From a virus, in the IMG/VR virus record IMGVR_UViG_3300045988_024913: a DNA stretch of 18,079 bases. One strand, given 5' to 3'. Of this stretch, positions 1 through 18,079 are shown in pieces (positions within the stretch are counted from its first letter, which is position 1; every line of letters starts with the position of its first letter). The notes beneath the pieces are model-generated. The model ran no database searches and was not told where the DNA came from. It was given only the letters and a program-made list of their open reading frames with translations. The position numbers and the translations under genes are program-made.

Positions 1-299
1 GGAGGGGAGGGGCCCCAGCAGCTAGCCTTTTTCCACAACTGCTTTGTTGTGTGTTTTGCTATCGTTGTTTGTTCTGTGTTTTTTGTTGTTGTTTCTGTTG
101 TGCTTTTTTGCCTCGTCTCTGGTTCTTGTTGTGTTTTGCTGGCTTTTTTCGTTGTCGTTTTTTGCTTGTTGTTTTGTCTGCGTTTTTTGTCTCGTTGTTT
201 TTTATCGTTTTTGTGTTGTTGTTGGGCGTGTTGTGTTTTGTGGTGGTGTATTATGTGATTGTCGGCCAAGGAATGTAGAAAGGATGGTAGTTGAGATGA
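1..299. repeat. Left inverted terminal repeat (ITR), 299 bp
   Basis: Bases 1-299 equal the reverse complement of 17781-18079, except g261 versus the base mirrored at 17819. Identity stops at position 300. The terminus reads 5'-GGAGGGGAGGGGCCCC. Confidence 0.97.
249..254 (+). promoter_or_regulatory. Possible -10 element (TATTAT) of an early promoter inside the ITR, mirrored on the - strand of the right ITR
   Basis: TATTAT at 249-254 is preceded by TG at 247-248 and lies about 45 nt upstream of the first start codon. I found no convincing -35 at 17-bp spacing. Confidence 0.25.
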
Positions 300-511
300 C
301 TGGTATTTCTGTTCGTTTTGAGACTGGTGAGCTGGGCGGGAAGGAGGTTCTTATCTTGCGCTATCGTCTAAGGAGGTTTGTGATTGTAAAATTCTTCACT
401 GAAACGTATGATTCTTGTTCTGGTGAGGTTTGTTCGGCTATGGATAATATGGTGGGCTTTGTTTATCGCTTGATGAGGTTTGTTTCTGAGCATCCTGAGT
501 ACTCCTATTGA
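296..511 (+). CDS. Hypothetical early protein (71 aa), first gene of the left-end operon
   Basis: This is the 3' part of track ORF 44..511. The upstream part lies in the A-free ITR, where no stop codon can occur, so I trimmed to ATG 296 (alternative ATG 284), downstream of AAAGGA at 279-284. No family recognised. Confidence 0.5.
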   Translation: MTGISVRFETGELGGKEVLILRYRLRRFVIVKFFTETYDSCSGEVCSAMDNMVGFVYRLMRFVSEHPEYSY

Positions 512-1897: not shown

Positions 1898-2335
1898 ATG
1901 GCTGACAACGAACTGGCCGTAATGGACGGCAACAATTTTGCGGCGAACGGCGCTAACGCCGTATCCCATTTCTTCAACACTGACACTATGGATGGCAAAA
2001 TGGCGCTCTATAACGCCATGCAGACCGTCGACAAGATAGACGAACATCTTAATGAGCCTTTGCACGTGACCAACGTGCTTGCGCAGGCCATCGAGGTTGC
2101 CAATCAGGAAACCGGCGAAATCAACTCTTCCACCCGCGTTGTTATCCACGCGGAAGAGGGCGACTTTGCCGCCGCCTCCCCCACGTTGGCACATGCTTTT
2201 GGTAATCTGTTCGCCATCTTCGGAACGCCGGACACGTGGGACCATCCGCTTGTCCTCAAGGTGGTGGAAAAGAAGAGCCGCCGTGGTTATAAGTTCTTTG
2301 ACCTTGAACTAGCGTCGGAAAACAAGCGCAAGTAA
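1898..2335 (+). CDS. Early protein, tentative phage-type ssDNA-binding protein
   Basis: ATG 1898 follows AAGGAAAGG. The pattern FN..D...L...H(V/I)..V........ETGE....TRVVI..EEG...A.S......L..IFG...W...L.LKVVEKKS..G..FF.LEL resembles my recollection of small OB-fold SSBs of Gram-positive phages. The position upstream of the terminal protein and polymerase genes matches phi29 gene 5. Confidence 0.5.
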   Translation: MADNELAVMDGNNFAANGANAVSHFFNTDTMDGKMALYNAMQTVDKIDEHLNEPLHVTNVLAQAIEVANQETGEINSSTRVVIHAEEGDFAAASPTLAHAFGNLFAIFGTPDTWDHPLVLKVVEKKSRRGYKFFDLELASENKRK

Positions 2336-2399: not shown

Positions 2400-2431
2400 C
2401 CCCCCGTCGTTTCCATCCTTACGACGGGGGG
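2400..2431 (+). terminator. Stem-loop, putative intrinsic terminator or attenuator
   Basis: An 11-bp perfect GC-rich stem, CCCCCCGTCGT (2400-2410) with ACGACGGGGGG (2421-2431), has a 10-nt loop and is followed by TGTTTCAC, a weak U tract. Confidence 0.5.
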
Positions 2432-2457
2432 TGTTTCACACTCACAAGGGAGGAGCC

Positions 2458-3402
2458 GTGGCAAAACGCAAAAACAACCGACGTGCCAACAATCTGAAAC
2501 GCAACGCCGCCATCAGGTCGGCACAGGTACGCCGAGAGCAAGCGGTCAGGGATTACAGTACCGGACATCTCCCCAAGCAAATCACCGAAACGTTTTTAGG
2601 AAAACTCAGCGCCCAACAACTCGAACAGGTCGCACGACGCATCGGGCAGGAATTCGGGGAACGACAGCAAGCATTAAGGGCGCGGGACGGCGAGCCGTAT
2701 CAGGTTGTCCCGGATGTGCATGTCACGAAACTTGATAGGGAGCTGGCGGCGCGTCCGTTGATTACCGACGCGGAAATCGCCGCCGCCCCGTCGAAACGTC
2801 AGAAGACGTTACGACAGCAGCAGCGCCGCCGCATCGAGGCACGGCAGAAAATCAAACGCGCCCAACAGTTCGACGCATTGAGCCTAGCCCGCTACACCGT
2901 GGCCGAAATACGTGAAATGGAACGCGCCGGAGAATCCCCCTTTGATGTGCTGGGCACTCACACGGTCGGCGGTTCGGCGCGTGACGAACTCACGCGCAAC
3001 CGTGCGAACGTGTTCGGCTCGGAGCGCGGCATGAGTCACGCGCGTATGATGATACGAGAAGGGGGCAGGAGGAAGCTTGAACGTGAGATACTCGAATATG
3101 CCGGGCTTGTAGGTCGAGCGCCATTGCATGCAGGTACTAGACAGATTTCCGGAGGTGAGGGGGTTTCGGATTTTGACAGGGTCGCACAGCAACTCGAATC
3201 ATTCGACTCCAGTATAGCCCAAAAATTCGCATCCTTATCGAACCGTCAAAAACGATGGCTGATAAATAATACAAATTTCAGCACCGTGGTACGTGAGGCC
3301 GCTTGGTATAATGATAAGACACATAAATGGGAGACAAAGGCGGATGCGGGCGATGTAGAGACACGACTTGATGAATGGATGGCCAGCGCGGCACGACACT
3401 AA
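2458..3402 (+). CDS. Probable terminal (priming) protein (314 aa)
   Basis: GTG 2458 follows the strong SD AAGGGAGGAG at 2446-2455; track ORF 2431..3402 starts inside the hairpin. The N-terminus is very basic (AKRKNNRRANNLKRN). The gene lies immediately upstream of the protein-primed polymerase in an ITR-bearing linear genome. No direct similarity to phi29 p3 recognised. Confidence 0.6.
   Translation: MAKRKNNRRANNLKRNAAIRSAQVRREQAVRDYSTGHLPKQITETFLGKLSAQQLEQVARRIGQEFGERQQALRARDGEPYQVVPDVHVTKLDRELAARPLITDAEIAAAPSKRQKTLRQQQRRRIEARQKIKRAQQFDALSLARYTVAEIREMERAGESPFDVLGTHTVGGSARDELTRNRANVFGSERGMSHARMMIREGGRRKLEREILEYAGLVGRAPLHAGTRQISGGEGVSDFDRVAQQLESFDSSIAQKFASLSNRQKRWLINNTNFSTVVREAAWYNDKTHKWETKADAGDVETRLDEWMASAARH
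3304..3312 (+). promoter_or_regulatory. Perfect extended -10 sequence TGGTATAAT inside the 3' end of the terminal protein gene
   Basis: The TGnTATAAT consensus occupies 3304-3312, about 105 nt upstream of the polymerase start codon. Confidence 0.4.
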
Positions 3403-3416
3403 AAAAGGATGGAATT

Positions 3417-4877
3417 ATGCGAGAGCGTCGAACGGCGGCAACGGACGGCGTAACACTATTGACGGATGACGGCGTGGAACCATTGACAGCAGCCGCCGTC
3501 ATCCGGCTTACCATGCTTGATTATCATACGCGCGTATGGTGCGCCCACGGATGGCAGGATATCAAGCCCATAGCCGCCGAACTGTTGAAACGACTCCCCT
3601 TGCAATCGAATCCGGCCAAGGATGGCGTGTGGGGCACGTTCAACATTCGAGGCCACTTCTATAGTTTCCGTGTACGCATAGGCGGTATCACCGTGGATTT
3701 TTTGGACGTGCGCAACATTACACGTGACGATGGATTGAATGTTTCACGTGAAACATTCGGCGGTGCGGATGATTTGGAGACCACGTGGAACATCGCGCAG
3801 GAATGCGCCGCCCTGCATCTCAGGGGCACAACCATAGCATCTATGGCGATGGCCGACTATATAGACGGGGATTATGCCGGGTTCAAGCGTCATTTTCCGC
3901 CATTGGACAAAGAGGTTTATCATCGGATGCGCCCCGCCTACTATGGGGCGATAGTGTACAGCAAGCCGGGCGAGTACCGGGATTGCCGAAGCTGGGATGT
4001 AAACAGTCTCTACCCAAGTATCATGCGCGATGCCCCCATGCCGGTAGGCTCACCCGTGTGGCATGACGGGGAGTATCGGTATGACGCTGATTATCCGTTG
4101 CATATCGATGTCATCACGTTTGATGCAAGGTTGAAAACGGGGAAAACAGCGACACTCACCAATATCTTACCCGTATGGGGGTATGAGGGCGAACGCTTGG
4201 ATAGTACGTTGGGTGCCATCACATTGCCGGTCACTGATGTGGATTGGGAGACGCTCACGGAAAACTATGACGTGCACGTGTGGGAACATGTCGGCGGTTG
4301 GAAATTCCGTAAATCGCACGGACTTTATTACACCTATGTTGATAAATGGTTTCACGTGAAACAAACCGCCACCGGAGAGCGTAGGCAGATGGCGAAACTG
4401 TTACTAAACTCACTGGTGGGGAAATTCGGGGCCTCGCTCTACCGTCCCATGTTGCACCCAAAACCATCGGCGGACGGTGGCGTGGATTTTACCGTGGACA
4501 AACCCGAGTCGGCCAACAGTCTGGCATGGTTGCCGACCGCCGCATATGTCAATGCCTACGGACGGCAAATACTATCCCGCGCCATGAACGCGAACGCCGA
4601 CCGCGTACTCTACGCCGACACTGACGGCATGATACTGGAAGGGTTGGATACACCCATCGGCATCGAAACGGATGACCGGAAACTAGGGGCGTGGAAAAAC
4701 GACCACACCTATGAGAGGCTCCGTATTCTCGGCAATCGCAAATATTGCGGCGCGGAAACGGATGGCGATACGGTAATGCGATTGAGTGGCGTGCATCGTG
4801 CCGCCCCCATCCCCTATGATGAGTTCCTGCCGGGGTCACGTCATCTCAATGATGACGGCCATATTTTCGTGCTATAA
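3417..4877 (+). CDS. Family B DNA polymerase, protein-primed (phi29 gp2-like), 486 aa
   Basis: ATG 3417 follows AAGGATGG; the track start 3375 overlaps the terminal protein gene. Motif A is WDVNSLYPS (phi29 FDVNSLYPA). DADYPLHID matches phi29 DEDYPLHIQ. Motif B is KLLLNSLVGKFG (phi29 KLMLNSLYGKF). Motif C is LYADTDG (phi29 IYCDTDS). The KxY motif is NRKY. Confidence 0.95.
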   Translation: MRERRTAATDGVTLLTDDGVEPLTAAAVIRLTMLDYHTRVWCAHGWQDIKPIAAELLKRLPLQSNPAKDGVWGTFNIRGHFYSFRVRIGGITVDFLDVRNITRDDGLNVSRETFGGADDLETTWNIAQECAALHLRGTTIASMAMADYIDGDYAGFKRHFPPLDKEVYHRMRPAYYGAIVYSKPGEYRDCRSWDVNSLYPSIMRDAPMPVGSPVWHDGEYRYDADYPLHIDVITFDARLKTGKTATLTNILPVWGYEGERLDSTLGAITLPVTDVDWETLTENYDVHVWEHVGGWKFRKSHGLYYTYVDKWFHVKQTATGERRQMAKLLLNSLVGKFGASLYRPMLHPKPSADGGVDFTVDKPESANSLAWLPTAAYVNAYGRQILSRAMNANADRVLYADTDGMILEGLDTPIGIETDDRKLGAWKNDHTYERLRILGNRKYCGAETDGDTVMRLSGVHRAAPIPYDEFLPGSRHLNDDGHIFVL

Positions 4878-5426: not shown

Positions 5427-7163
5427 ATGCCGACTACTCCAGTGGTGACGCCGAAGCAGCAGCTTCGACCGCTCACCGAATTTAACAACGCGCAGATTCT
5501 CAACATGATTCGCAATGAGGCATCTCCCGAGTACCAGCGGCGTATGCCAAGTGCGACTCAAATGAACATGGACAGGCAGATGGCCACCCTCATGTCGTCC
5601 ACTCAGCTGAAGAACGAGTTTTACTCGGCCTTGGTGAACCGTATCGGCGGCACCTATGTGAACACATGGCGCTGGAATAATCCACTCACCGTGTTCCAGC
5701 GCGCATCTCAGGCGTATGGCGACACGTGGCAGGAAATCGCCGTAGGTATGCCACTCGCACAAGTGTACGACCCGGACGCGGAGTACTTGGGCGCGGATAA
5801 TTTCCGCAAGTGGAAAATCGACGTGGACAGCCTCTATCATCGGCTTGACTTCACTCACTTCTACCCCGTCACCACGGAAGATAAGACGCTCCAGCGTGCC
5901 TTCACCTCCGAAAACGGTTTGGCCTCGCTCACCTCGCAGATTCTCACATCCTGTTACAATGCGGCTGAGGTTGACTTGTTCGAGGCCATGTGTCACCAGT
6001 TCGTCGAGTATGCGAAACTCGGCGGATATTGGCGTGTCCACATGGGGCACGACCTTAACGACATGGGCAGTTCGGAAACGGACGCCCGCGACATGTTGCG
6101 CCAGATTCGCGCATGGGCTGACACGCTGAAATTTGTATCCACTCGGTACAATGCGCGTCACATGCCGACGTTCGCCCGCCCCGACGAACTCGTGCTGTTC
6201 TGCTCGCCCGAAGTCAAGTCGGCGCTTGACGTGCAGGGTCTGGCGACCGTGTTCCAGCGTACGGACGCGGAACCGACCATTGACCGGATTATCGTCATCC
6301 CACAAGACAGGTTCGGCATGGACGGCGTGCAAGCCATCCTGACCACTGACAAATTCCTCATCGATATTCCCGTCATCAATGAGATGACCCAGCAGACGAA
6401 CCCGGTTAACATCAATTCGGTCAACCATTACTTGCACGTCCAACACATCATTTCGGTGTCTGGTTTCGCCCCCGCCGTCATGTTCTGGACTGGAGAGGGT
6501 TCCACCGCGAAAATGGTGCCGCCTACCGGTACGACGGCCAAGACGCCGACCTTCCAACTCAAACTTGCCATGTACGGTGGTGGCACATCCACCCCGTCGA
6601 ATGTGGCGCGTGGCGGAGCGGTGCAGGTCGTTGCCGATACGTCCATCACCAATGACGGTACGGCCACGTTCCGCTCGAATGCGGTCGAGTATCGTATCGG
6701 CGACACTGTCAAGCCCAAGAGCGATTACACCTATATTTCGCCGACCGGCGTGCTCGTGGTCGGTCTTGACGAACCAAACACCACTATTCCGGTCACGGCC
6801 ACCGCCCTATATACGAACCCGACGACGCCGGAAGTGCCGGGCACCGTGTCCGCCGCCCTGAACGTGCCGGTGGTTGGCGATGGTGTCATCGGATTCAACC
6901 CGTCCATCGTCGCGTCGATTGCCGTCAATGTTTCGAAAGTGACCGTGGGCCATACGGTGCAGGCGACTGCCGTAGCGACCATGATTGACGGGCGAACCGC
7001 CGACGTGACCGCTCAAGCCGCATGGACATCCGGCACCCCGGCCAACGCCACCGTATCCGAGTCCGGCGTGGTGACTGGAATCAAGGAGGGCAGTTCTGAT
7101 ATCACCGCCACGCTGTTCGGCGTATCCGGTAAGAAGAGCGTGACCGTGACAGCGGCCGCGTGA
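5427..7163 (+). CDS. Major capsid protein (phi29 gp8-like) with C-terminal Ig-like (Big_2-type) domain(s), 578 aa
   Basis: ATG 5427 follows GAAAGGAAA. NEFYSALVNRIG, FYPVTTEDKTLQRAF and ILTSCYNAAEVDLFEAM parallel phi29 gp8 NDFITSLVDRIG, FYHQTIQDDSLKTAF and IINAIYNSAEVDEYEYM. The C-terminus ATVSESGVVTGIKEGSSDITATLFGVSGKKSVTVTA is a typical Big_2 signature. Confidence 0.9.
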   Translation: MPTTPVVTPKQQLRPLTEFNNAQILNMIRNEASPEYQRRMPSATQMNMDRQMATLMSSTQLKNEFYSALVNRIGGTYVNTWRWNNPLTVFQRASQAYGDTWQEIAVGMPLAQVYDPDAEYLGADNFRKWKIDVDSLYHRLDFTHFYPVTTEDKTLQRAFTSENGLASLTSQILTSCYNAAEVDLFEAMCHQFVEYAKLGGYWRVHMGHDLNDMGSSETDARDMLRQIRAWADTLKFVSTRYNARHMPTFARPDELVLFCSPEVKSALDVQGLATVFQRTDAEPTIDRIIVIPQDRFGMDGVQAILTTDKFLIDIPVINEMTQQTNPVNINSVNHYLHVQHIISVSGFAPAVMFWTGEGSTAKMVPPTGTTAKTPTFQLKLAMYGGGTSTPSNVARGGAVQVVADTSITNDGTATFRSNAVEYRIGDTVKPKSDYTYISPTGVLVVGLDEPNTTIPVTATALYTNPTTPEVPGTVSAALNVPVVGDGVIGFNPSIVASIAVNVSKVTVGHTVQATAVATMIDGRTADVTAQAAWTSGTPANATVSESGVVTGIKEGSSDITATLFGVSGKKSVTVTAAA

Positions 7164-7216: not shown

Positions 7217-7255
7217 AAGGCCCGGAGCGCAAGCCACGTGAGCGCTCCGGGCCTT
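7217..7255 (+). terminator. Stem-loop 2 after the capsid gene
   Basis: AAGGCCCGGAGCGC (7217-7230) pairs with GCGCTCCGGGCCTT (7242-7255). This is a 14-bp perfect stem with an 11-nt loop and no clear U tract. Confidence 0.5.
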
Positions 7256-7274
7256 GCCATATGAAAGGGATAGT

Positions 7275-9524
7275 ATGCTGAGAGATATCAACCCTAACGT
7301 CGAGGCGACGTTTAACTGGGCTCAATGGACGCCCAACACGTCACTGAAACTCTGTAACGTGCCGTGGGATAGTAGTTACCGTGACCTAGCCCGGTTCGAA
7401 TCACCGCAGAAACAACAGGAATGGTTCGACCGACGGCCCGGCATTGACAGGGTACATGGAGTCATGCACATGTTCGGCCAACCCGTGCGCGTCGAACTGC
7501 CATTTAACGAGGCGTCCAACTACAACTATGTCGTGGTGTATAACGATTACCCCGATTTGGAGGCGCCACGGTATTGGTATTATTTCATCAACCACGTGGA
7601 TTACATCAATGCGTACACTACTCAGCTCACTGTGCAGTTGGACGTTTGGCAGTCGTTCCAGCATGTACTTAGGTTCGGTTCATGCTATGTGGTGCGAGGC
7701 CATATCGGCATTGCCAACGAAAACCAGATGACCGATTATGGCCGCAGTTATCTCGCACTACCCGAAGGGCTGGACACCGGTAGCGAAATGGTGACGGTAA
7801 ACCAACGATACAAGTCTCTTATCAGCATGGACGGGAAAAATCTGAGTTACGGCGTAATAGTCGTGAGCACGGTAGATTTGTCAGCGGACGCGGGCAGTCA
7901 GGGAAAACCGTCTCTCACTACTGCGGGCGGCTCTCTTTTCGAGAACATGGCTAACGGTGCTGAAATACTGTACTTTAAGGATATCCAGTCTATCCAAGTG
8001 TTTATGGGAGTGGGCTCTACTTTTTCATGGATAACACAGGGTATTGTAAACATGTACATGATACCCTCTTTAGATGATGACTTTCTTAAGCAATCCGGCT
8101 ATGTCGTAGATAAGCTGTTTGGGAAAACACTCCCTTCGGAATTAAATAATCGTATCTACCGTTTCCCCCAGTCGGCCACAAATGCGCCCAGCAGATATGA
8201 AGACATTATTACCATTAATGATTTTCGTGATAATTTTAATATCCCTGAACGTTATAAAAACCTTAAAAAACTCAAATGCTACCCCTATTCTACTGTTGAA
8301 TGCACTTGCTTGAATGGTACTAATATCACCTATAAGCCCGAAAATATCCAAAGCGATAATCTGGTTATTAGAGAGGTGCATAATTACGCGCCCAATGGCG
8401 CGCGCTTGAACTTTTACCCGGTTGGGTACAATAAGGCGGGTGCAAGCGAGATTGCTCCTCTTGGTAAAAACAATGGGTTGCCCATTGATAGCGGGGAAAT
8501 GTTGGACGCCGCGTTTGGCATCAGCAATTTCCCTCAATTTGTGATAGTCAACAATGGCGCCCAGTTGGCAATGGCAAACAGTGCCTACACTCGTTCCTAC
8601 AGTCAACAGTCCGCCGACTGGGCATACCAAAAAGCGCAGATGGGCATCAGTCAGTCTCTTGCGGCCACGGCCATGCAAAACCAGTACAACACCCAAGCCA
8701 ACAAACTCGCTATCGGCAACCGCAACGCCAATAACGCAATTCAAGCGACAGCTCTTAACACCGGTCTGGATAACACGACGTATATCAACAATCAGCGAGC
8801 CGACCTAGCCCAGCTAAACAACGTGGCAAACGGTGTAATCGGGGTGGTGGGTAACGCCGCTTCGGGCAATGTCGGGGGCGCGGTATCGGCATTAGGCGGG
8901 GCGGTCATGAATGGTGTCAACACTGAAGCAAACCGCAGTATCAACAATACCGCCGCCCAACTTTCCACGGCGAACTCGCTGAGTACCAACGCGGCCACAA
9001 CAAGTCAGGCCAACACATACGGTTCTCAGACTACAGCGCTTTCAAACCAGTTGGCCCAAAACATGGCGGACATGAACGCGGATTACGCGCAACGTTCCGC
9101 GTTCGGCGACTATCAAAACACCATTGCGGGCATCAATGCACAGGTACAGCAGATGCAATTAACACCCCCGACCACCTCCGGTGCCATCGGCGGAGACGGT
9201 TTTAACCTCGCGAACGGTATTGTCGGGGTGTTGGTCCGATTTAAGACGTGCGCACCCTCAGCTCTGCGGAGCGTCGGAGAGTACATGTTACGTTACGGGT
9301 ATTTTATCCAGCGTTTCATCACGCCGCCGCAATCGCTGGAATGTATGACAAAATTCACGTACTGGCAGATGCAAGAGTGTTACGTGCGAGGTGATTTGCC
9401 CGAGCAGTATCGACAGACCATTAAAGGCGTGTTCGAGTCTGGGGCTACTATATGGACTAACCCGGATGATATCGGCGTGACCGATTGGGCGGATAACGAC
9501 CCATTGCCGGGCATCTCATTCTAG
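7275..9524 (+). CDS. Tail knob protein (phi29 gp9-like), 749 aa
   Basis: ATG 7275 follows AAAGGGA; the track start 7254 lies inside hairpin 2. CNVPWDSSYRD, RYWYYFINHVDYINAYTTQLTVQLDVWQSF, KCYPYSTVECT and MLRYGYFIQR...GATIWTNPDDIG parallel phi29 gp9 [55 protein letters not shown] and FHKYGYKINR...GITLWHTDNIG. Confidence 0.85.
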   Translation: MLRDINPNVEATFNWAQWTPNTSLKLCNVPWDSSYRDLARFESPQKQQEWFDRRPGIDRVHGVMHMFGQPVRVELPFNEASNYNYVVVYNDYPDLEAPRYWYYFINHVDYINAYTTQLTVQLDVWQSFQHVLRFGSCYVVRGHIGIANENQMTDYGRSYLALPEGLDTGSEMVTVNQRYKSLISMDGKNLSYGVIVVSTVDLSADAGSQGKPSLTTAGGSLFENMANGAEILYFKDIQSIQVFMGVGSTFSWITQGIVNMYMIPSLDDDFLKQSGYVVDKLFGKTLPSELNNRIYRFPQSATNAPSRYEDIITINDFRDNFNIPERYKNLKKLKCYPYSTVECTCLNGTNITYKPENIQSDNLVIREVHNYAPNGARLNFYPVGYNKAGASEIAPLGKNNGLPIDSGEMLDAAFGISNFPQFVIVNNGAQLAMANSAYTRSYSQQSADWAYQKAQMGISQSLAATAMQNQYNTQANKLAIGNRNANNAIQATALNTGLDNTTYINNQRADLAQLNNVANGVIGVVGNAASGNVGGAVSALGGAVMNGVNTEANRSINNTAAQLSTANSLSTNAATTSQANTYGSQTTALSNQLAQNMADMNADYAQRSAFGDYQNTIAGINAQVQQMQLTPPTTSGAIGGDGFNLANGIVGVLVRFKTCAPSALRSVGEYMLRYGYFIQRFITPPQSLECMTKFTYWQMQECYVRGDLPEQYRQTIKGVFESGATIWTNPDDIGVTDWADNDPLPGISF

Positions 9525-9539: not shown

Positions 9540-10496
9540 ATGTCTAGGTCGAGGAAAAATCAGAATCGCAGGGGCGGCGCGTTGCACCCGCGTGGCAATT
9601 ACGCCAAGGCGCGCGCCGCCGACCTTGACGCAATGTACTATCACTTGTTAACTGAACTGGCACTGAACCGGTTCAGTTGGCGGGGGCTACCGCCAACAGT
9701 GGATGAACGATGGCTGGAAATGTGTCTGTGTGAATACGGGTGCGCGTTGTTTTTCGAGGACAAGCGTATAGGCCGGTTCCTCGTAACACAGGCCGGCTAT
9801 CAAGGCCGATTGAATGTGTATAATAATCCGACGTGTTTCGAGCCGGTGGGCGTCAACTACCATTACAAGCAACTCAAGGCGGGCCGTGAATGCATCCCGA
9901 TTTGGGACAATCGGATGCGCATGAGTTTCAAAGATATCTTATGGCAGTATGCGAGACGCCTTGCCGACATTGACAAGGCATATGATGTGAACTTGGAGAG
10001 CCTGAAACTGCCGACCATCATCACCGCCGACCCGCGCACCAAGCTCACCGTGCAAAACATGCTCCAGCAAAGGCAGGACGGCCAAGACTATATCATCGGA
10101 TATGACTCCCTCGACCCCGGTAGCATGTTCCAGCCGTGGCCCAACACTACACCGTATCTGCTGGACAAGTTTATCCAGCAAAAAACTCAGGTGACTAACG
10201 AGGTATTGGGGTATCTCGGTATCCAGTCCAGTGGTACCGAGAAAAAAGAACGGCTTATTTCCGATGAGGTGGCGCAGGCCAATGAGAAAACGGACGTGTT
10301 CCGGTTGAGTTTTCTCAAGGCTCGGCAGACGGCGGCGACTGAGATTAACCGGCTGTGGCCGCAACTTAACATCTGGGTTGAGTATGCGGACGCGCAAAGC
10401 TCCGGCGTGCCGAACGCGCTGGACTCCAGCGCAAGCGGTACGACGGATATTGATATGCCCGCGTCGTATGACGCGGGTATTGGAGGTGTATTGTGA
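9540..10496 (+). CDS. Head-tail connector / portal (upper collar) protein (phi29 gp10-like), 318 aa
   Basis: FSWRGLPPTVDERWLE, YLGIQSSGTEKKERLISDEVAQANEK and FLKARQTAATEINRLW parallel phi29 gp10 [42 protein letters not shown] and FLKSREEACEKINELY. The length is similar (318 vs 309 aa). Confidence 0.93.
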   Translation: MSRSRKNQNRRGGALHPRGNYAKARAADLDAMYYHLLTELALNRFSWRGLPPTVDERWLEMCLCEYGCALFFEDKRIGRFLVTQAGYQGRLNVYNNPTCFEPVGVNYHYKQLKAGRECIPIWDNRMRMSFKDILWQYARRLADIDKAYDVNLESLKLPTIITADPRTKLTVQNMLQQRQDGQDYIIGYDSLDPGSMFQPWPNTTPYLLDKFIQQKTQVTNEVLGYLGIQSSGTEKKERLISDEVAQANEKTDVFRLSFLKARQTAATEINRLWPQLNIWVEYADAQSSGVPNALDSSASGTTDIDMPASYDAGIGGVL

Positions 10497-12149: not shown

Positions 12150-12509
12150 ATGACCGCAACCAAACATACTGCAAACTACAATCTAAGCCAGTTCGAACCG
12201 ACCGACCGGCCTACATGGCAGGGCGATTACAACGGAGATATGAAAAAAATTGACACGGCGCTTCACGGCATCACGTCGTCGGGCGGATTGCGTGAAGTCG
12301 CCGTGTCCGCGCCACTGTCCGGCAAGGGCACCAGCAGCTCGCCTATCGCCATTGACTTGAGCGGCTACGCCACCAAGTCCGCCCTCACTTCCGGCCTTGC
12401 GGGCAAGGCGGATAAAACCGCATCGGCTCCGGAAACCAAGGGGCTGACCGCCAGTCAACTGGATTCGCTTTGGGTGGACGATAACGGAATCGTCCGATTC
12501 GCGGCATGA
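12150..12509 (+). CDS. Short tail-fibre-like protein (119 aa) sharing its N-terminal module with the next gene
   Basis: ATG 12150 follows AAGGAG. The N-terminus HTANYNLSQFEPTDRPTWQGDYNGDMKKIDTAL is paralogous to 12537..13436 and resembles the N-terminal docking motif of Gram-positive phage fibres. Confidence 0.5.
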   Translation: MTATKHTANYNLSQFEPTDRPTWQGDYNGDMKKIDTALHGITSSGGLREVAVSAPLSGKGTSSSPIAIDLSGYATKSALTSGLAGKADKTASAPETKGLTASQLDSLWVDDNGIVRFAA

Positions 12510-12536: not shown

Positions 12537-13436
12537 ATGTCCAGTATCAACAAAACCCCGCACTATAATCTCAGCCAGTTCGGTGACAGCCCGGACGATA
12601 AACCGTCATGGCGCGGCGACTACACTGCGGATATGAGCAAGATCGACTCGCAGATGTATCGTAATGAAACGGACGCGACAACCGCAGCAAGTACCGCCAA
12701 TACGGCGAAAAGCACGGCGGATAACGCTCTATCGTTGGCGCAAACCAATAAGAGTGATATTGCCGAACATGCGTCGTATTTTACCGCGCTTGGCGTGACC
12801 TCGGAATCGACCGCACAAGCGCTTATGTCCACCATTAACGGTAAGGCGGAAAACACCGCGTTGACCACACTGCAAGGCACGGTGTCTTCTCTATCCAGCA
12901 CGGTCGACACCAAGGCGAACACGTCCGACGTGTACACCAAGAGTCAGGCCGACGCCCGATACACCCAGCAAGGGGGGTACGCTGGGACTGCCTCCACGAT
13001 TTATGAGATGGCGAGCGGGGCACAATCCAGCATTACTAGCCTCCAGTCAACCGGGGTCGCCCCGATTCAAGTCGTAAGTCAAAACGTGCTGACAGACTAT
13101 TTCGCAAACGGAGCTTGTGTGCTCACCGCGTATTATTCACCAATCTCTCGCATGATACACATCATGCTCAGGGTCGGGGCAGCAGAGGGAACCGGCGTAA
13201 CGCCAAAAAAGGCGTACCCCGGTAATCTGAGTACAAAAATAGCGACTATCGAGGAGCAGTATAGGCCCACTGTTTCGATTCAATCGCCCACGCAGCCGAT
13301 ATCTAACCCGGGCTCATTAAGTAACATTTTGGTAATGCCGACAGGCGAAATCAAGTTTTGGGGCGGTTCAAGCGGATTGTCAACATCAGCTTCAATCAAC
13401 GCAACTTTCCAGACAAGCTACTTTATTGTCCGCTGA
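12537..13436 (+). CDS. Tail fibre / receptor-binding protein candidate (299 aa)
   Basis: ATG 12537 follows GGAGGAGG. The N-terminus KTPHYNLSQFGDSPDDKPSWRGDYTADMSKIDSQM is followed by an A/T/S-rich, probably coiled-coil shaft and a distinct C-terminal domain. Confidence 0.6.
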   Translation: MSSINKTPHYNLSQFGDSPDDKPSWRGDYTADMSKIDSQMYRNETDATTAASTANTAKSTADNALSLAQTNKSDIAEHASYFTALGVTSESTAQALMSTINGKAENTALTTLQGTVSSLSSTVDTKANTSDVYTKSQADARYTQQGGYAGTASTIYEMASGAQSSITSLQSTGVAPIQVVSQNVLTDYFANGACVLTAYYSPISRMIHIMLRVGAAEGTGVTPKKAYPGNLSTKIATIEEQYRPTVSIQSPTQPISNPGSLSNILVMPTGEIKFWGGSSGLSTSASINATFQTSYFIVR

Positions 13437-14698: not shown

Positions 14699-14738
14699 AC
14701 AGTGACAAACCGGTAGATATATACCGGTTTGTCACTGT
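14699..14738 (+). terminator. Very strong stem-loop between the tail lysin and ATPase genes
   Basis: ACAGTGACAAACCGGTA gatata TACCGGTTTGTCACTGT forms a 17-bp perfect stem with a 6-nt loop. It starts 2 nt after the stop codon and is followed by TGTATGG, with no U tract. Confidence 0.5.
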
Positions 14739-14749
14739 TGTATGGTAGT

Positions 14750-15856
14750 ATGGATACTATGGAGAGACTGTTAGCGGAGGGTGATTATTACGATTATGGG
14801 CGCGTATTATCCTATCACGCGCCTTGGATGTTCGTAATCGGCGCGCGCGGCCTCGGCAAAACCTATGGTGCCAAAAAACTTGTCATTGGTGACTGGATTA
14901 AAAAACGCTGGCAATTCATCTATCTAAGACGTACCGCCGAGGAACAGAAAAACAAGGGCACATGGTTTGCTGACATTGCAGAACAGTATCCGGAGCTGGA
15001 ATTTCGCGTGTCCGGCAATCAGGCAGAATGTCATTGGCTGGATGACAGGGACGCGACCACGGACAAACACGGCAAGACGCGCCCCACGTGGCATATCATG
15101 GGGTATTTCATCGCCCTCAGTCAGGCCGGACAAGTGAAATCAGTTGCGTATCCCAAAGTGCGAACCATTGTTTTTGATGAGATTTTCCCCGATAATATGC
15201 GGTATTTGGGCGGTGAGGTGACCGCGCTTGAGGAATTTTATAATACGGTTGACCGTTGGAATGATAGGACTCGCGTTATCATGTGCAGTAATGCGGTAAC
15301 GTTGGCCAACCCGTATTTTTCGGCATTTAACATCAATCTGAAAACCCAATTGGATAATCACACGCAATACCAACGCTATTGCAACGGGTTCATTATGGTG
15401 GAATTGGCGGATTACGGGGGGTTCAGCGCCAAGGTGGCCACGTCGAAATTCGGTCAGTTTCTACGCGAATATGATGAGAATTATGCGAATTATGCAATCA
15501 ACAATGATTTCAGGGATAACGCCAATACTCTCGTCAGTGATTTCAACAACGCCGGTTATGCGTTCACGCTGAGAACGACCGAATACGGTATTTTTAACGT
15601 ATACCAACAATTAAGCGATACCGACGAAGTACTATATATAATCACCAAAAAACAGCCTAAAATCACCCGTGATTTTACGTTTGATTACCGACTGGTTGAC
15701 AATGATTGCATCATGCTCAAACGTTCCGACGATATGACGCAGAAAATATTAAGCGCCTATCGCGTCGGGCGACTGCGTTTTGAAACACCGCAAATCAAAG
15801 CGGAGTTCAGTATGATACTTGGCGGCCTGCTACAGCAATCAGGTATAAGAAAGTGA
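14750..15856 (+). CDS. DNA encapsidation ATPase (phi29 gp16-like), 368 aa
   Basis: FVIGARGLGKTYGAKK (Walker A), QFIYLRR, VRTIVFDEIF (Walker B) and CSNAVTLANPYFSAFNI parallel phi29 gp16 FVIGARGIGKSYAMK, QFIYVRR, VSTIVFDEFI and LSNAVSVVNPYFLFFNL. The start is either ATG 14750 or ATG 14759; the track start 14729 lies inside the hairpin. Confidence 0.92.
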   Translation: MDTMERLLAEGDYYDYGRVLSYHAPWMFVIGARGLGKTYGAKKLVIGDWIKKRWQFIYLRRTAEEQKNKGTWFADIAEQYPELEFRVSGNQAECHWLDDRDATTDKHGKTRPTWHIMGYFIALSQAGQVKSVAYPKVRTIVFDEIFPDNMRYLGGEVTALEEFYNTVDRWNDRTRVIMCSNAVTLANPYFSAFNINLKTQLDNHTQYQRYCNGFIMVELADYGGFSAKVATSKFGQFLREYDENYANYAINNDFRDNANTLVSDFNNAGYAFTLRTTEYGIFNVYQQLSDTDEVLYIITKKQPKITRDFTFDYRLVDNDCIMLKRSDDMTQKILSAYRVGRLRFETPQIKAEFSMILGGLLQQSGIRK

Positions 15857-17598: not shown

Positions 17599-17784
17599 TC
17601 ACTCGGCCACACGATTCACAAAAACCACAGTCTCAAAACAATAACGATAAAACTCAACACCCCCATGCTCATAGAAAACAACAAGACAATCCACAATAGC
17701 ATCAACATCATAACCCACAACACGCCCACCACTGTTGCGAATGTAGCCAATAACCTCATTCTCAATGTCTTGACGATGCATCAT
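17599..17784 (-). CDS. Hypothetical right-end protein (61 aa), first gene read inward from the right ITR
   Basis: This is the 3' part of track ORF 17599..18036. I trimmed it to the ATG mirrored from 296, which uses the same ITR-encoded SD as the left-end gene. An alternative start at 17796 gives MVVEM. Confidence 0.5.
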   Translation of the reverse strand: MMHRQDIENEVIGYIRNSGGRVVGYDVDAIVDCLVVFYEHGGVEFYRYCFETVVFVNRVAE

Positions 17785-18079
17785 CTCAACTACCATCCTT
17801 TCTACATTCCTTGGCCGATAATCACATAATACACCACCACAAAACACAACACGCCCAACAACAACACAAAAACGATAAAAAACAACGAGACAAAAAACGC
17901 AGACAAAACAACAAGCAAAAAACGACAACGAAAAAAGCCAGCAAAACACAACAAGAACCAGAGACGAGGCAAAAAAGCACAACAGAAACAACAACAAAAA
18001 ACACAGAACAAACAACGATAGCAAAACACACAACAAAGCAGTTGTGGAAAAAGGCTAGCTGCTGGGGCCCCTCCCCTCC
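17781..18079. repeat. Right inverted terminal repeat (ITR), 299 bp
   Basis: Reverse complement of 1-299 with a single mismatch at 17819. The window ends exactly at the repeat end. Confidence 0.97.

Follow-up and report, generated by a model that had tools for sequence, protein, structure and literature searches.

Protein-primed DNA polymerases of phages are usually taken to be high-fidelity proofreading enzymes on the model of phi29. In the DNA polymerase (DNAP) of that phage (gp2; structures 1XHX and 2PYJ), the exonuclease site is composed of D12, E14, D66, D169, Y165, K143 and N62, and the narrow template tunnel on which strand displacement depends is built from the exonuclease domain, TPR2 and the palm (PMC4974454); K555, Q560 and L567 stabilize the primer end at the exonuclease site (PMC1475753). 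Here we describe the polymerase gene (positions 3417-4877) of an uncultivated phage, IMG/VR record IMGVR_UViG_3300045988_024913, whose sequence of 18,079 nucleotides (the window) is the complete linear genome of a phi29-like podophage of the Bifidobacterium type. Its product is a protein-primed family B polymerase (pPolB) with a complete polymerase domain and a shortened N-terminal domain, and the whole clade of gut Bifidobacterium phages to which it belongs keeps the exonuclease fold, not the catalytic set of residues.

Reduced or inactivated exonuclease domains have been described in other family B polymerases. A survey found the domain to be conserved in this family except in mavirus-type derivatives: the pPolB of the mavirus virophage retains only a remnant of it, and the pPolB-helicase fusions of polinton-like viruses (pPolB-S1H) lack it, and the authors suggest lower fidelity for these exonuclease-reduced enzymes (PMC11161782). 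Inactivated exonuclease domains are likewise found in Pol alpha, Pol zeta and the C-terminal module of Pol epsilon (PMC2669801, PMC7544198). Bifidobacterium phages are included in a 2024 review of the phi29-like group, which mentions exonuclease activity for phi29 only (PMC11476376), and searches on these phages by name yielded nothing on the polymerases. We found no mention in open-access papers of a missing exonuclease site in Bifidobacterium phage polymerases, although an earlier description is possible; the polymerases of the cultured Bifidobacterium podophages are annotated simply as "DNA polymerase".

Identity and Polymerase Domain of the Enzyme

The gene and the motifs of its polymerase domain are as follows.

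3417..4877, + strand: DNA polymerase gene, 486 amino acids plus stop; protein-primed family B, PF03175
3996..4016, + strand: polymerase motif A 'DVNSLYP', with catalytic Asp194 and steric-gate Tyr199; columns invariant
4395..4430, + strand: polymerase motif B 'KLLLNSLVGKFG', placed by the alignments; the conserved Tyr (phi29 Y390) is Val334 at 4416-4418
4611..4628, + strand: polymerase motif C 'YADTDG', with catalytic Asp403

Residues are counted from the ATG at 3417, giving a protein of 486 amino acids. This is most likely the true start, rather than the in-frame ATG at 3375, because AAGGA lies just upstream of it and the homologues are all called from there; initiation at 3375 would lengthen the protein by 14 residues and make the gene overlap with the preceding open reading frame (ORF), which stops at 3402. 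The protein matches PF03175 with 118.1 bits against a gathering score of 25.8, and phrog_1907 with an E-value of 1.6e-54. In a phmmer comparison, residues 206-501 of phi29 DNAP were aligned continuously and without large gaps, the TPR1 and TPR2 regions included (1.6e-44), with an identity of about 34% that applies to the polymerase domain only. For the N-terminus this direct comparison was abandoned as uninformative, as it aligns only the polymerase domain (169-458 of the 500-residue ORF). The AlphaFold2 model has a mean predicted local distance difference test score (pLDDT) of 90.8, and Foldseek matched it to phi29 DNAP (2PYJ/1XHX) over the whole length (E 1e-39, TMq 0.84). The enzyme thus shares family, fold and motifs A, B and C with phi29 DNAP; it belongs to the protein-primed family B polymerases, its polymerase domain is complete with palm, fingers, TPR1 and TPR2, and the use of a protein primer is predicted for it.

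The three motifs are intact, as the original prediction had stated, and the polymerase catalytic set is present (D194, Y199, K327, N331, D401 and D403), the sole deviation being Val334 in motif B. Among close relatives, for which we used a set of 78 unique intact 486-codon genes from IMG/VR contigs throughout, this position is V in 76 and A in two, and across the clade of similarly shortened polymerases (hereafter the short clade) it is V, I, T or A. In phi29 the corresponding Tyr390, whose role has been described, contacts the nascent base pair and is regarded as invariant in family B (PMC1976434, PMC4974454). We considered the exchange of Tyr for Val as independent evidence for low fidelity and rejected it, given that several canonical exonuclease-proficient pPolBs have S, T or I at this position. 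Motif C of several relatives (including BD811P3, BP1 and P0094) reads YANTDG, the first Asp (phi29 D456) being exchanged for Asn, and the second, catalytic Asp is retained in each of them.

A Reduced Exonuclease Domain and Thumb

The features that depart from phi29 DNAP lie at the two ends of the protein.

3417..3833, + strand: reduced exonuclease-fold N-terminal domain, residues 1-139, corresponding to phi29 1-189 and about 50 residues shorter
3441..3449, + strand: Exo I remnant 'TDG' (T9-D10-G11), where the first beta-strand ends; no equivalent of E14
3513..3560, + strand: strand beta4 and Exo II remnant 'MLDYHTRVWCAHGWQD' (residues 33-48); D48 corresponds to phi29 D66
3639..3668, + strand: beta-hairpin 'FNIRGHFYSF' (residues 75-84), aligned with phi29 'IISRMGQWYMI'
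3762..3779, + strand: deletion junction and Exo III remnant 'GADDLE' (residues 116-121); D119 corresponds to phi29 D169
4746..4874, + strand: shortened thumb and C-terminus, about 31 residues shorter than in phi29 by alignment

The N-terminus was mapped by MAFFT with intermediate sequences and canonical relatives, by profile-profile comparison in hhalign, and by the order of secondary structure elements in the AlphaFold2 model. When the short clade was compared with the N-termini of canonical pPolBs, hhalign returned a probability of 97.6% and an E-value of 3e-12, aligning query residues 24-168 with phi29 43-219; the invariant T139 falls on phi29 T189. The domain is modeled with a pLDDT of 88-95 and is spanned by the Foldseek match to phi29. 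Its elements follow each other as strands 4-9, 13-16 and 19-22, helix 25-32, strand 37-42 and a long helix 46-59, a sequence that would match the beta1-beta2-beta3-alphaA-beta4-alphaB order of the phi29 exonuclease domain. By homology, then, the N-terminal domain has the DEDDy-type (DnaQ-like) exonuclease fold, and the complete site is missing from it. Both the shortening and the incomplete site had been predicted and are borne out by the profile alignments and the model, with the residue equivalences shifted; the region preceding the FPPL segment is indeed shorter than in phi29, by 51 residues from the start at 3417 instead of the roughly 60 first estimated.

At Exo I, MAFFT aligns the (A/S)(T/C)D of these proteins with the SCD of phi29, so that D10 is probably the equivalent of D12. 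None of the 78 relatives contains a [DE]x[DE] dyad in its first 34 residues, and as no acid-x-acid dyad can be found in any register, the Exo I DxE dyad is absent. At Exo II, whose motif is Nx2-3(F/Y)D, the Asp is present, D48 being equivalent to D66 by both MAFFT and hhalign; H44 or G45, according to the alignment used, stands in place of N62, and Q47 in place of F65, and sister lineages lack the Asp as well. The model places strands 70-75 and 81-88 after the helix that follows Exo II. Further downstream, hhalign opens a gap of 27 residues corresponding to phi29 L142-N168, with which K143, Y148 and Y165 are lost; the Kx2hxA motif that holds K143 falls inside this deletion. The Yx3D motif of Exo III is consequently incomplete, its Tyr having gone with 26 neighboring residues, and only D119 remains, at the start of helix 119-132. 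Its equivalence to D169 follows from an ungapped register running back from T139 and T189.

Taking the five classical residues together, D12 is probably represented by D10, E14 is absent, D66 is D48, Y165 is deleted and D169 is D119. By this alignment-based map up to three of the five are retained, where only one had been counted in the original prediction, in a site that is non-canonical in lacking the DxE dyad, the Tyr, K143 and N62.

The thumb is reduced as well. No counterpart of phi29 K555-D569, the segment with Q560 and the thumb-tip L567, is present in the protein, and the whole short clade is without this hairpin.

Conservation and Distribution of the Reduced Form

More than 80 metagenomic relatives with 87-93% identity were found, all of 486 amino acids from the 3417 start, one of them in an assembly labeled Bifidobacterium breve; an intact ORF of exactly 486 codons is carried by 79 independent IMG/VR contigs. 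In the 78-gene set, mean pairwise amino acid identity is 90.7% over the N-terminal 165 residues and 89.5% over the remainder, and the Nei-Gojobori ratio of non-synonymous to synonymous substitution rates (dN/dS) is 0.081 in the N-terminal domain, compared with 0.076 in the polymerase domain. The exonuclease-fold domain is therefore not decaying, and is as constrained as the rest of the polymerase.

Judged by the polymerase protein, the closest cultured relatives are the Bifidobacterium podophages BD811P1-3, BP1, BadAztec1/2/4 and BadAargau2 (35-38% identity). Their polymerases (445-483 amino acids) have the same reduced architecture, with the same 27-residue deletion, the same thumb truncation and Val or Ile in motif B, and their genomes are syntenic with the one described here; the BFVD model of BadAztec1 DNAP superposes on our model with template modeling scores of 0.86/0.89. 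The reduced form is thus common to close relatives and cultured phages, a point on which the original prediction had asked for a check. BD811P2, BD811P3, BP1 and BadAztec1 lack even the equivalents of D48 (D66) and D119 (D169), and only the (T/C)DG motif is common to the whole short clade.

The reduction is not a trait of phages of Actinobacteria at large. We rejected this possibility on finding complete exonuclease motifs in phi29-like phages of Actinomyces, Curtobacterium, Microbacterium and Arthrobacter; the polymerases of Av-1, Mimi16, Evcara, Anjali and PineapplePizza (566-598 amino acids) have complete ADFETTT, FHNLxFDG, KxxxDY and YxxxD motifs. For a wider survey, the N-terminal profile was compared with 1.84 billion metagenomic cluster representatives (50% identity), and the 72 hits were aligned to phi29. 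A dichotomy was evident, with 15 clusters having every exonuclease residue and at least 42 (454-664 amino acids) lacking most of them, proportions that are biased by the seeding of the survey with a degenerate profile. All surveyed clusters keep the polymerase catalytic residues. One lineage of 589 amino acids among the 42 (P0145) shows substitutions and no deletion. The hits without the canonical Exo I, II and III residues include many metagenomic pPolB lineages of 511-550 and 627-664 amino acids (P0140-P0186).

Probable Loss of Proofreading and Alternative Explanations

We consider it likely, on the strength of the alignments and the model, that this is a replicase with little or no proofreading, in which the remnant of the exonuclease fold is kept as architecture. 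A natural proofreading-deficient replicase, as originally proposed, is also the most economical reading of sequence and model. What is left of the exonuclease domain would be a minimal exonuclease-fold scaffold of about 139 residues, and three proofreading elements are missing jointly: the DxE dyad of Exo I, with no more than one Asp left, the 27-residue segment with Lys143, Tyr148 and Tyr165, and the thumb-tip hairpin. Such a joint loss of catalytic residues, Lys/Tyr segment and thumb tip is consistent with an enzyme in which the primer end is no longer transferred to a site for editing. The purifying selection on the remnant domain would reflect a structural need for it: with TPR2 and the palm, the remnant would make up the template tunnel on which strand displacement and processivity depend, and the docking of the terminal protein may require it as well. 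The mutation rate may also be raised.

Several points weigh against this interpretation. Of the four carboxylate positions, the three occupied by D10, D48 and D119 do not vary among the 78 relatives, nor does H44, and a weak or non-canonical exonuclease activity is conceivable. The equivalence of D10 to D12 comes from MAFFT and topology only, hhalign not being confident over the first 23 residues, for which it gave inconsistent low-confidence placements in both global and low-mact modes. In phi29, moreover, the D12A and D66A mutations impair strand displacement, as reported by Soengas et al. in 1992 and Esteban et al. in 1994, and a purely structural role of the remnant is for this reason not self-evident.

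The reduced domain might accordingly still be an exonuclease, with D10, D48, D119 and perhaps H44 making up a minimal non-canonical metal site through which useful proofreading would continue despite the missing Exo I Glu, Exo III Tyr and Lys143. G11 is likewise invariant among the 78 sequences and purifying selection on the domain is strong; at identities as low as about 45-55% the three positions stay largely acidic, with D10 kept, position 48 being D or E, and position 119 being D or E in most. The invariance of D10, G11, H44, D48 and D119 is nevertheless weak evidence for catalysis, because 46% of the N-terminal positions are invariant in the same set anyway, and in the wider clade position 119 is occupied by P, V, A or K or is deleted. 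The domain is kept even in sister lineages without equivalents of D48 and D119, all cultured Bifidobacterium phages among them. In the model, D10 sits in a DG beta-turn, D48 in the first turn of a helix and D119 at a helix N-cap, places where Asp would be structurally favored, and this may provide a non-catalytic reason for its conservation. Lys143, Tyr165, L567 and K555, which phi29 needs for catalysis or for holding the primer end (PMC4974454, PMC1475753), are deleted. Retained proofreading of this kind therefore seems unlikely. That the three Asp and His44 form an undescribed minimal site that edits, or carries out some other phosphoryl transfer, in the absence of the Exo I Glu, the Exo III Tyr, Lys143 and the thumb tip, we consider quite unlikely as well; if true, a replicative polymerase would here have a novel, reduced version of the DEDD nuclease active site.

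Proofreading could instead be provided in trans, by another phage protein or a host exonuclease, in which case overall fidelity would be unreduced. Precedents are known in other replicases, such as the epsilon subunit of Pol III, and the early ORFs 1020-1538, 1556-1867 and 2431-3402 are without recognizable function. A compensating factor had also been raised in the original prediction, but no exonuclease is detectable in the genome, none of the 16 ORFs tested matching an exonuclease family in Pfam, PHROGs, NCBIfam or PDB sequences. The 172-residue early protein is predicted, at low confidence (pLDDT 47), to be all-helical, unlike the alpha/beta fold of the DnaQ type. The thumb elements for primer-end transfer are deleted, and a processive strand-displacing polymerase that encircles DNA would presumably give an external editor little access. 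We regard this explanation as distinctly improbable.

A further alternative, put forward with the original prediction, takes 'MLDYHT' as Exo I and 'FNIRGH' as Exo II, so that His would replace the metal-ligand Glu and Asp and metal coordination would be altered. The strings and codons on which it was built are in frame as quoted (D at 3519-3521, H at 3525-3527, N at 3642-3644, H at 3654-3656 and I at 3792-3794), and there is a local resemblance of RVWCAHGW to phi29 RVWAYGY and of FNIRGH to HNLKFD. Profile alignments with intermediates, however, put both strings at other structural elements, and all three motif assignments made by eye are contradicted. 'MLDYHT/RVWCAHGW' is the strand leading into Exo II according to MAFFT, hhalign and the order of the model, where it comes after three strands and a helix and so cannot be the first, Exo I-bearing strand; 'RVW' is not conserved in the clade (RVY, RMY, IIY, VVW), and D35, the supposedly kept Exo I Asp, is exchanged for G, N or E among close relatives. 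'FNIRGHFYSF' belongs to the downstream beta-hairpin in the alignments and lies, in the model, beyond the helix following Exo II, and 'TTWNI', assigned to Exo III, lies downstream of the position of the Exo III Asp. With H37 mapping to the start of beta4 and H80 to the beta-hairpin, neither His occupies the place of E14 or D66, which leaves this version very improbable. An artifactual short N-terminus, whether from a misplaced start, a frameshift or the decay of a pseudogene, is suggested by nothing but the unusual length and is refuted by the intact ORF on 79 independent contigs, the dN/dS of 0.08, the ribosome-binding site preceding the ATG at 3417 and the cultured phages with the same architecture.

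Relation to Known Systems and Significance

The situation differs from that of the described exonuclease-reduced polymerases. The mavirus and polinton-like pPolBs belong to eukaryotic viruses and have a fusion architecture of terminal protein (TP) and vOTU, whereas in this phage the exonuclease fold is almost whole and the regions that align with the strand-displacement elements of phi29 are retained; family scans of the ORFs of this phage gave no match to a helicase family. Pol alpha, Pol zeta and the Pol epsilon module are alike in that the exonuclease fold has been kept structurally after loss of the catalytic residues. These enzymes, however, are primed by RNA/DNA and work in multi-subunit replisomes alongside other polymerases that proofread, whereas the enzyme described here is the sole replicase of its virus.

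Should the loss be confirmed, the clade would provide natural exonuclease-deficient and presumably strand-displacing polymerases, which would be attractive for use in amplification and sequencing; engineered exonuclease-deficient mutants of phi29 lose strand displacement. It would also offer a test case for the replication error tolerated by an 18-kilobase double-stranded DNA virus, and would show which parts of the exonuclease domain serve only as scaffold. The proposal would come as a moderate surprise to the field and is directly testable with the cultured relatives.

Genome Context

The setting of the gene is that of phi29, with a linear genome, terminal repeats, a protein that binds single-stranded DNA (SSB) and a gene in the position of the terminal protein.

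1..299: left inverted terminal repeat, 100% complementary to its partner 17781-18079
17781..18079: right inverted terminal repeat, partner 1-299
1898..2335, + strand: phi29-type SSB (p5-type), PF17427 at 9.4e-14 and phrog_6243
2431..3402, + strand: putative terminal protein of 323 amino acids directly upstream of the polymerase, assigned by position
5427-7163: phi29-type major capsid protein
7254-9524: tail knob gp9
9540-10496: connector gp10
14729-15856: gp16 packaging ATPase

With PF25622, PF05352, PF20934, PF05894 and PF17427 (major capsid protein, gp10, gp9, gp16 and SSB) the hallmark set of phi29-like podophages is complete, the reference group being the Salasmaviridae and related unclassified Caudoviricetes; a holin and a GH25/LysM endolysin are also encoded. 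A megablast search of the whole window against GenBank phages gave no match. The product of 2431-3402 is 31% identical to that of the ORF upstream of DNAP in Bifidobacterium phage BD811P2, has no match in Pfam, PHROGs, NCBIfam or PDB, and shows no detectable likeness to known terminal proteins. An Rfam scan of the whole window found no family at the gathering score, the phi29 packaging RNA included, although a divergent packaging RNA would escape such a scan.

The inverted terminal repeats are perfect over 299 nucleotides, compared with 6 nucleotides in phi29. Their inner part is strongly strand-skewed, being T- and G-rich with TTGTTG-like runs, and the first kilobase has a GC skew of 0.39 and an AT skew of -0.48; this skew yields spurious ORFs rich in Leu, Phe, Cys and Val at 44-511 (+ strand) and 17599-18036 (- strand). 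The conserved 172-residue early protein encoded at 1020-1538 has many invariant Cys, Trp and Asp residues (e.g., C51, C81, C116, C119, C130 and C147), no family match and an AlphaFold2 model of low confidence. The major capsid protein has a C-terminal Ig-like (Big_2-type) domain at about residues 503-576, with Pfam scores below threshold. The adjacent ORFs 12150-12509 and 12537-13436 share the N-terminus 'T(A/P)(N/H)YNLSQF...(P)(T/S)W(Q/R)GDY..DM.KID', and look like paralogous tail-fiber or appendage proteins with a common anchor and differing distal parts.

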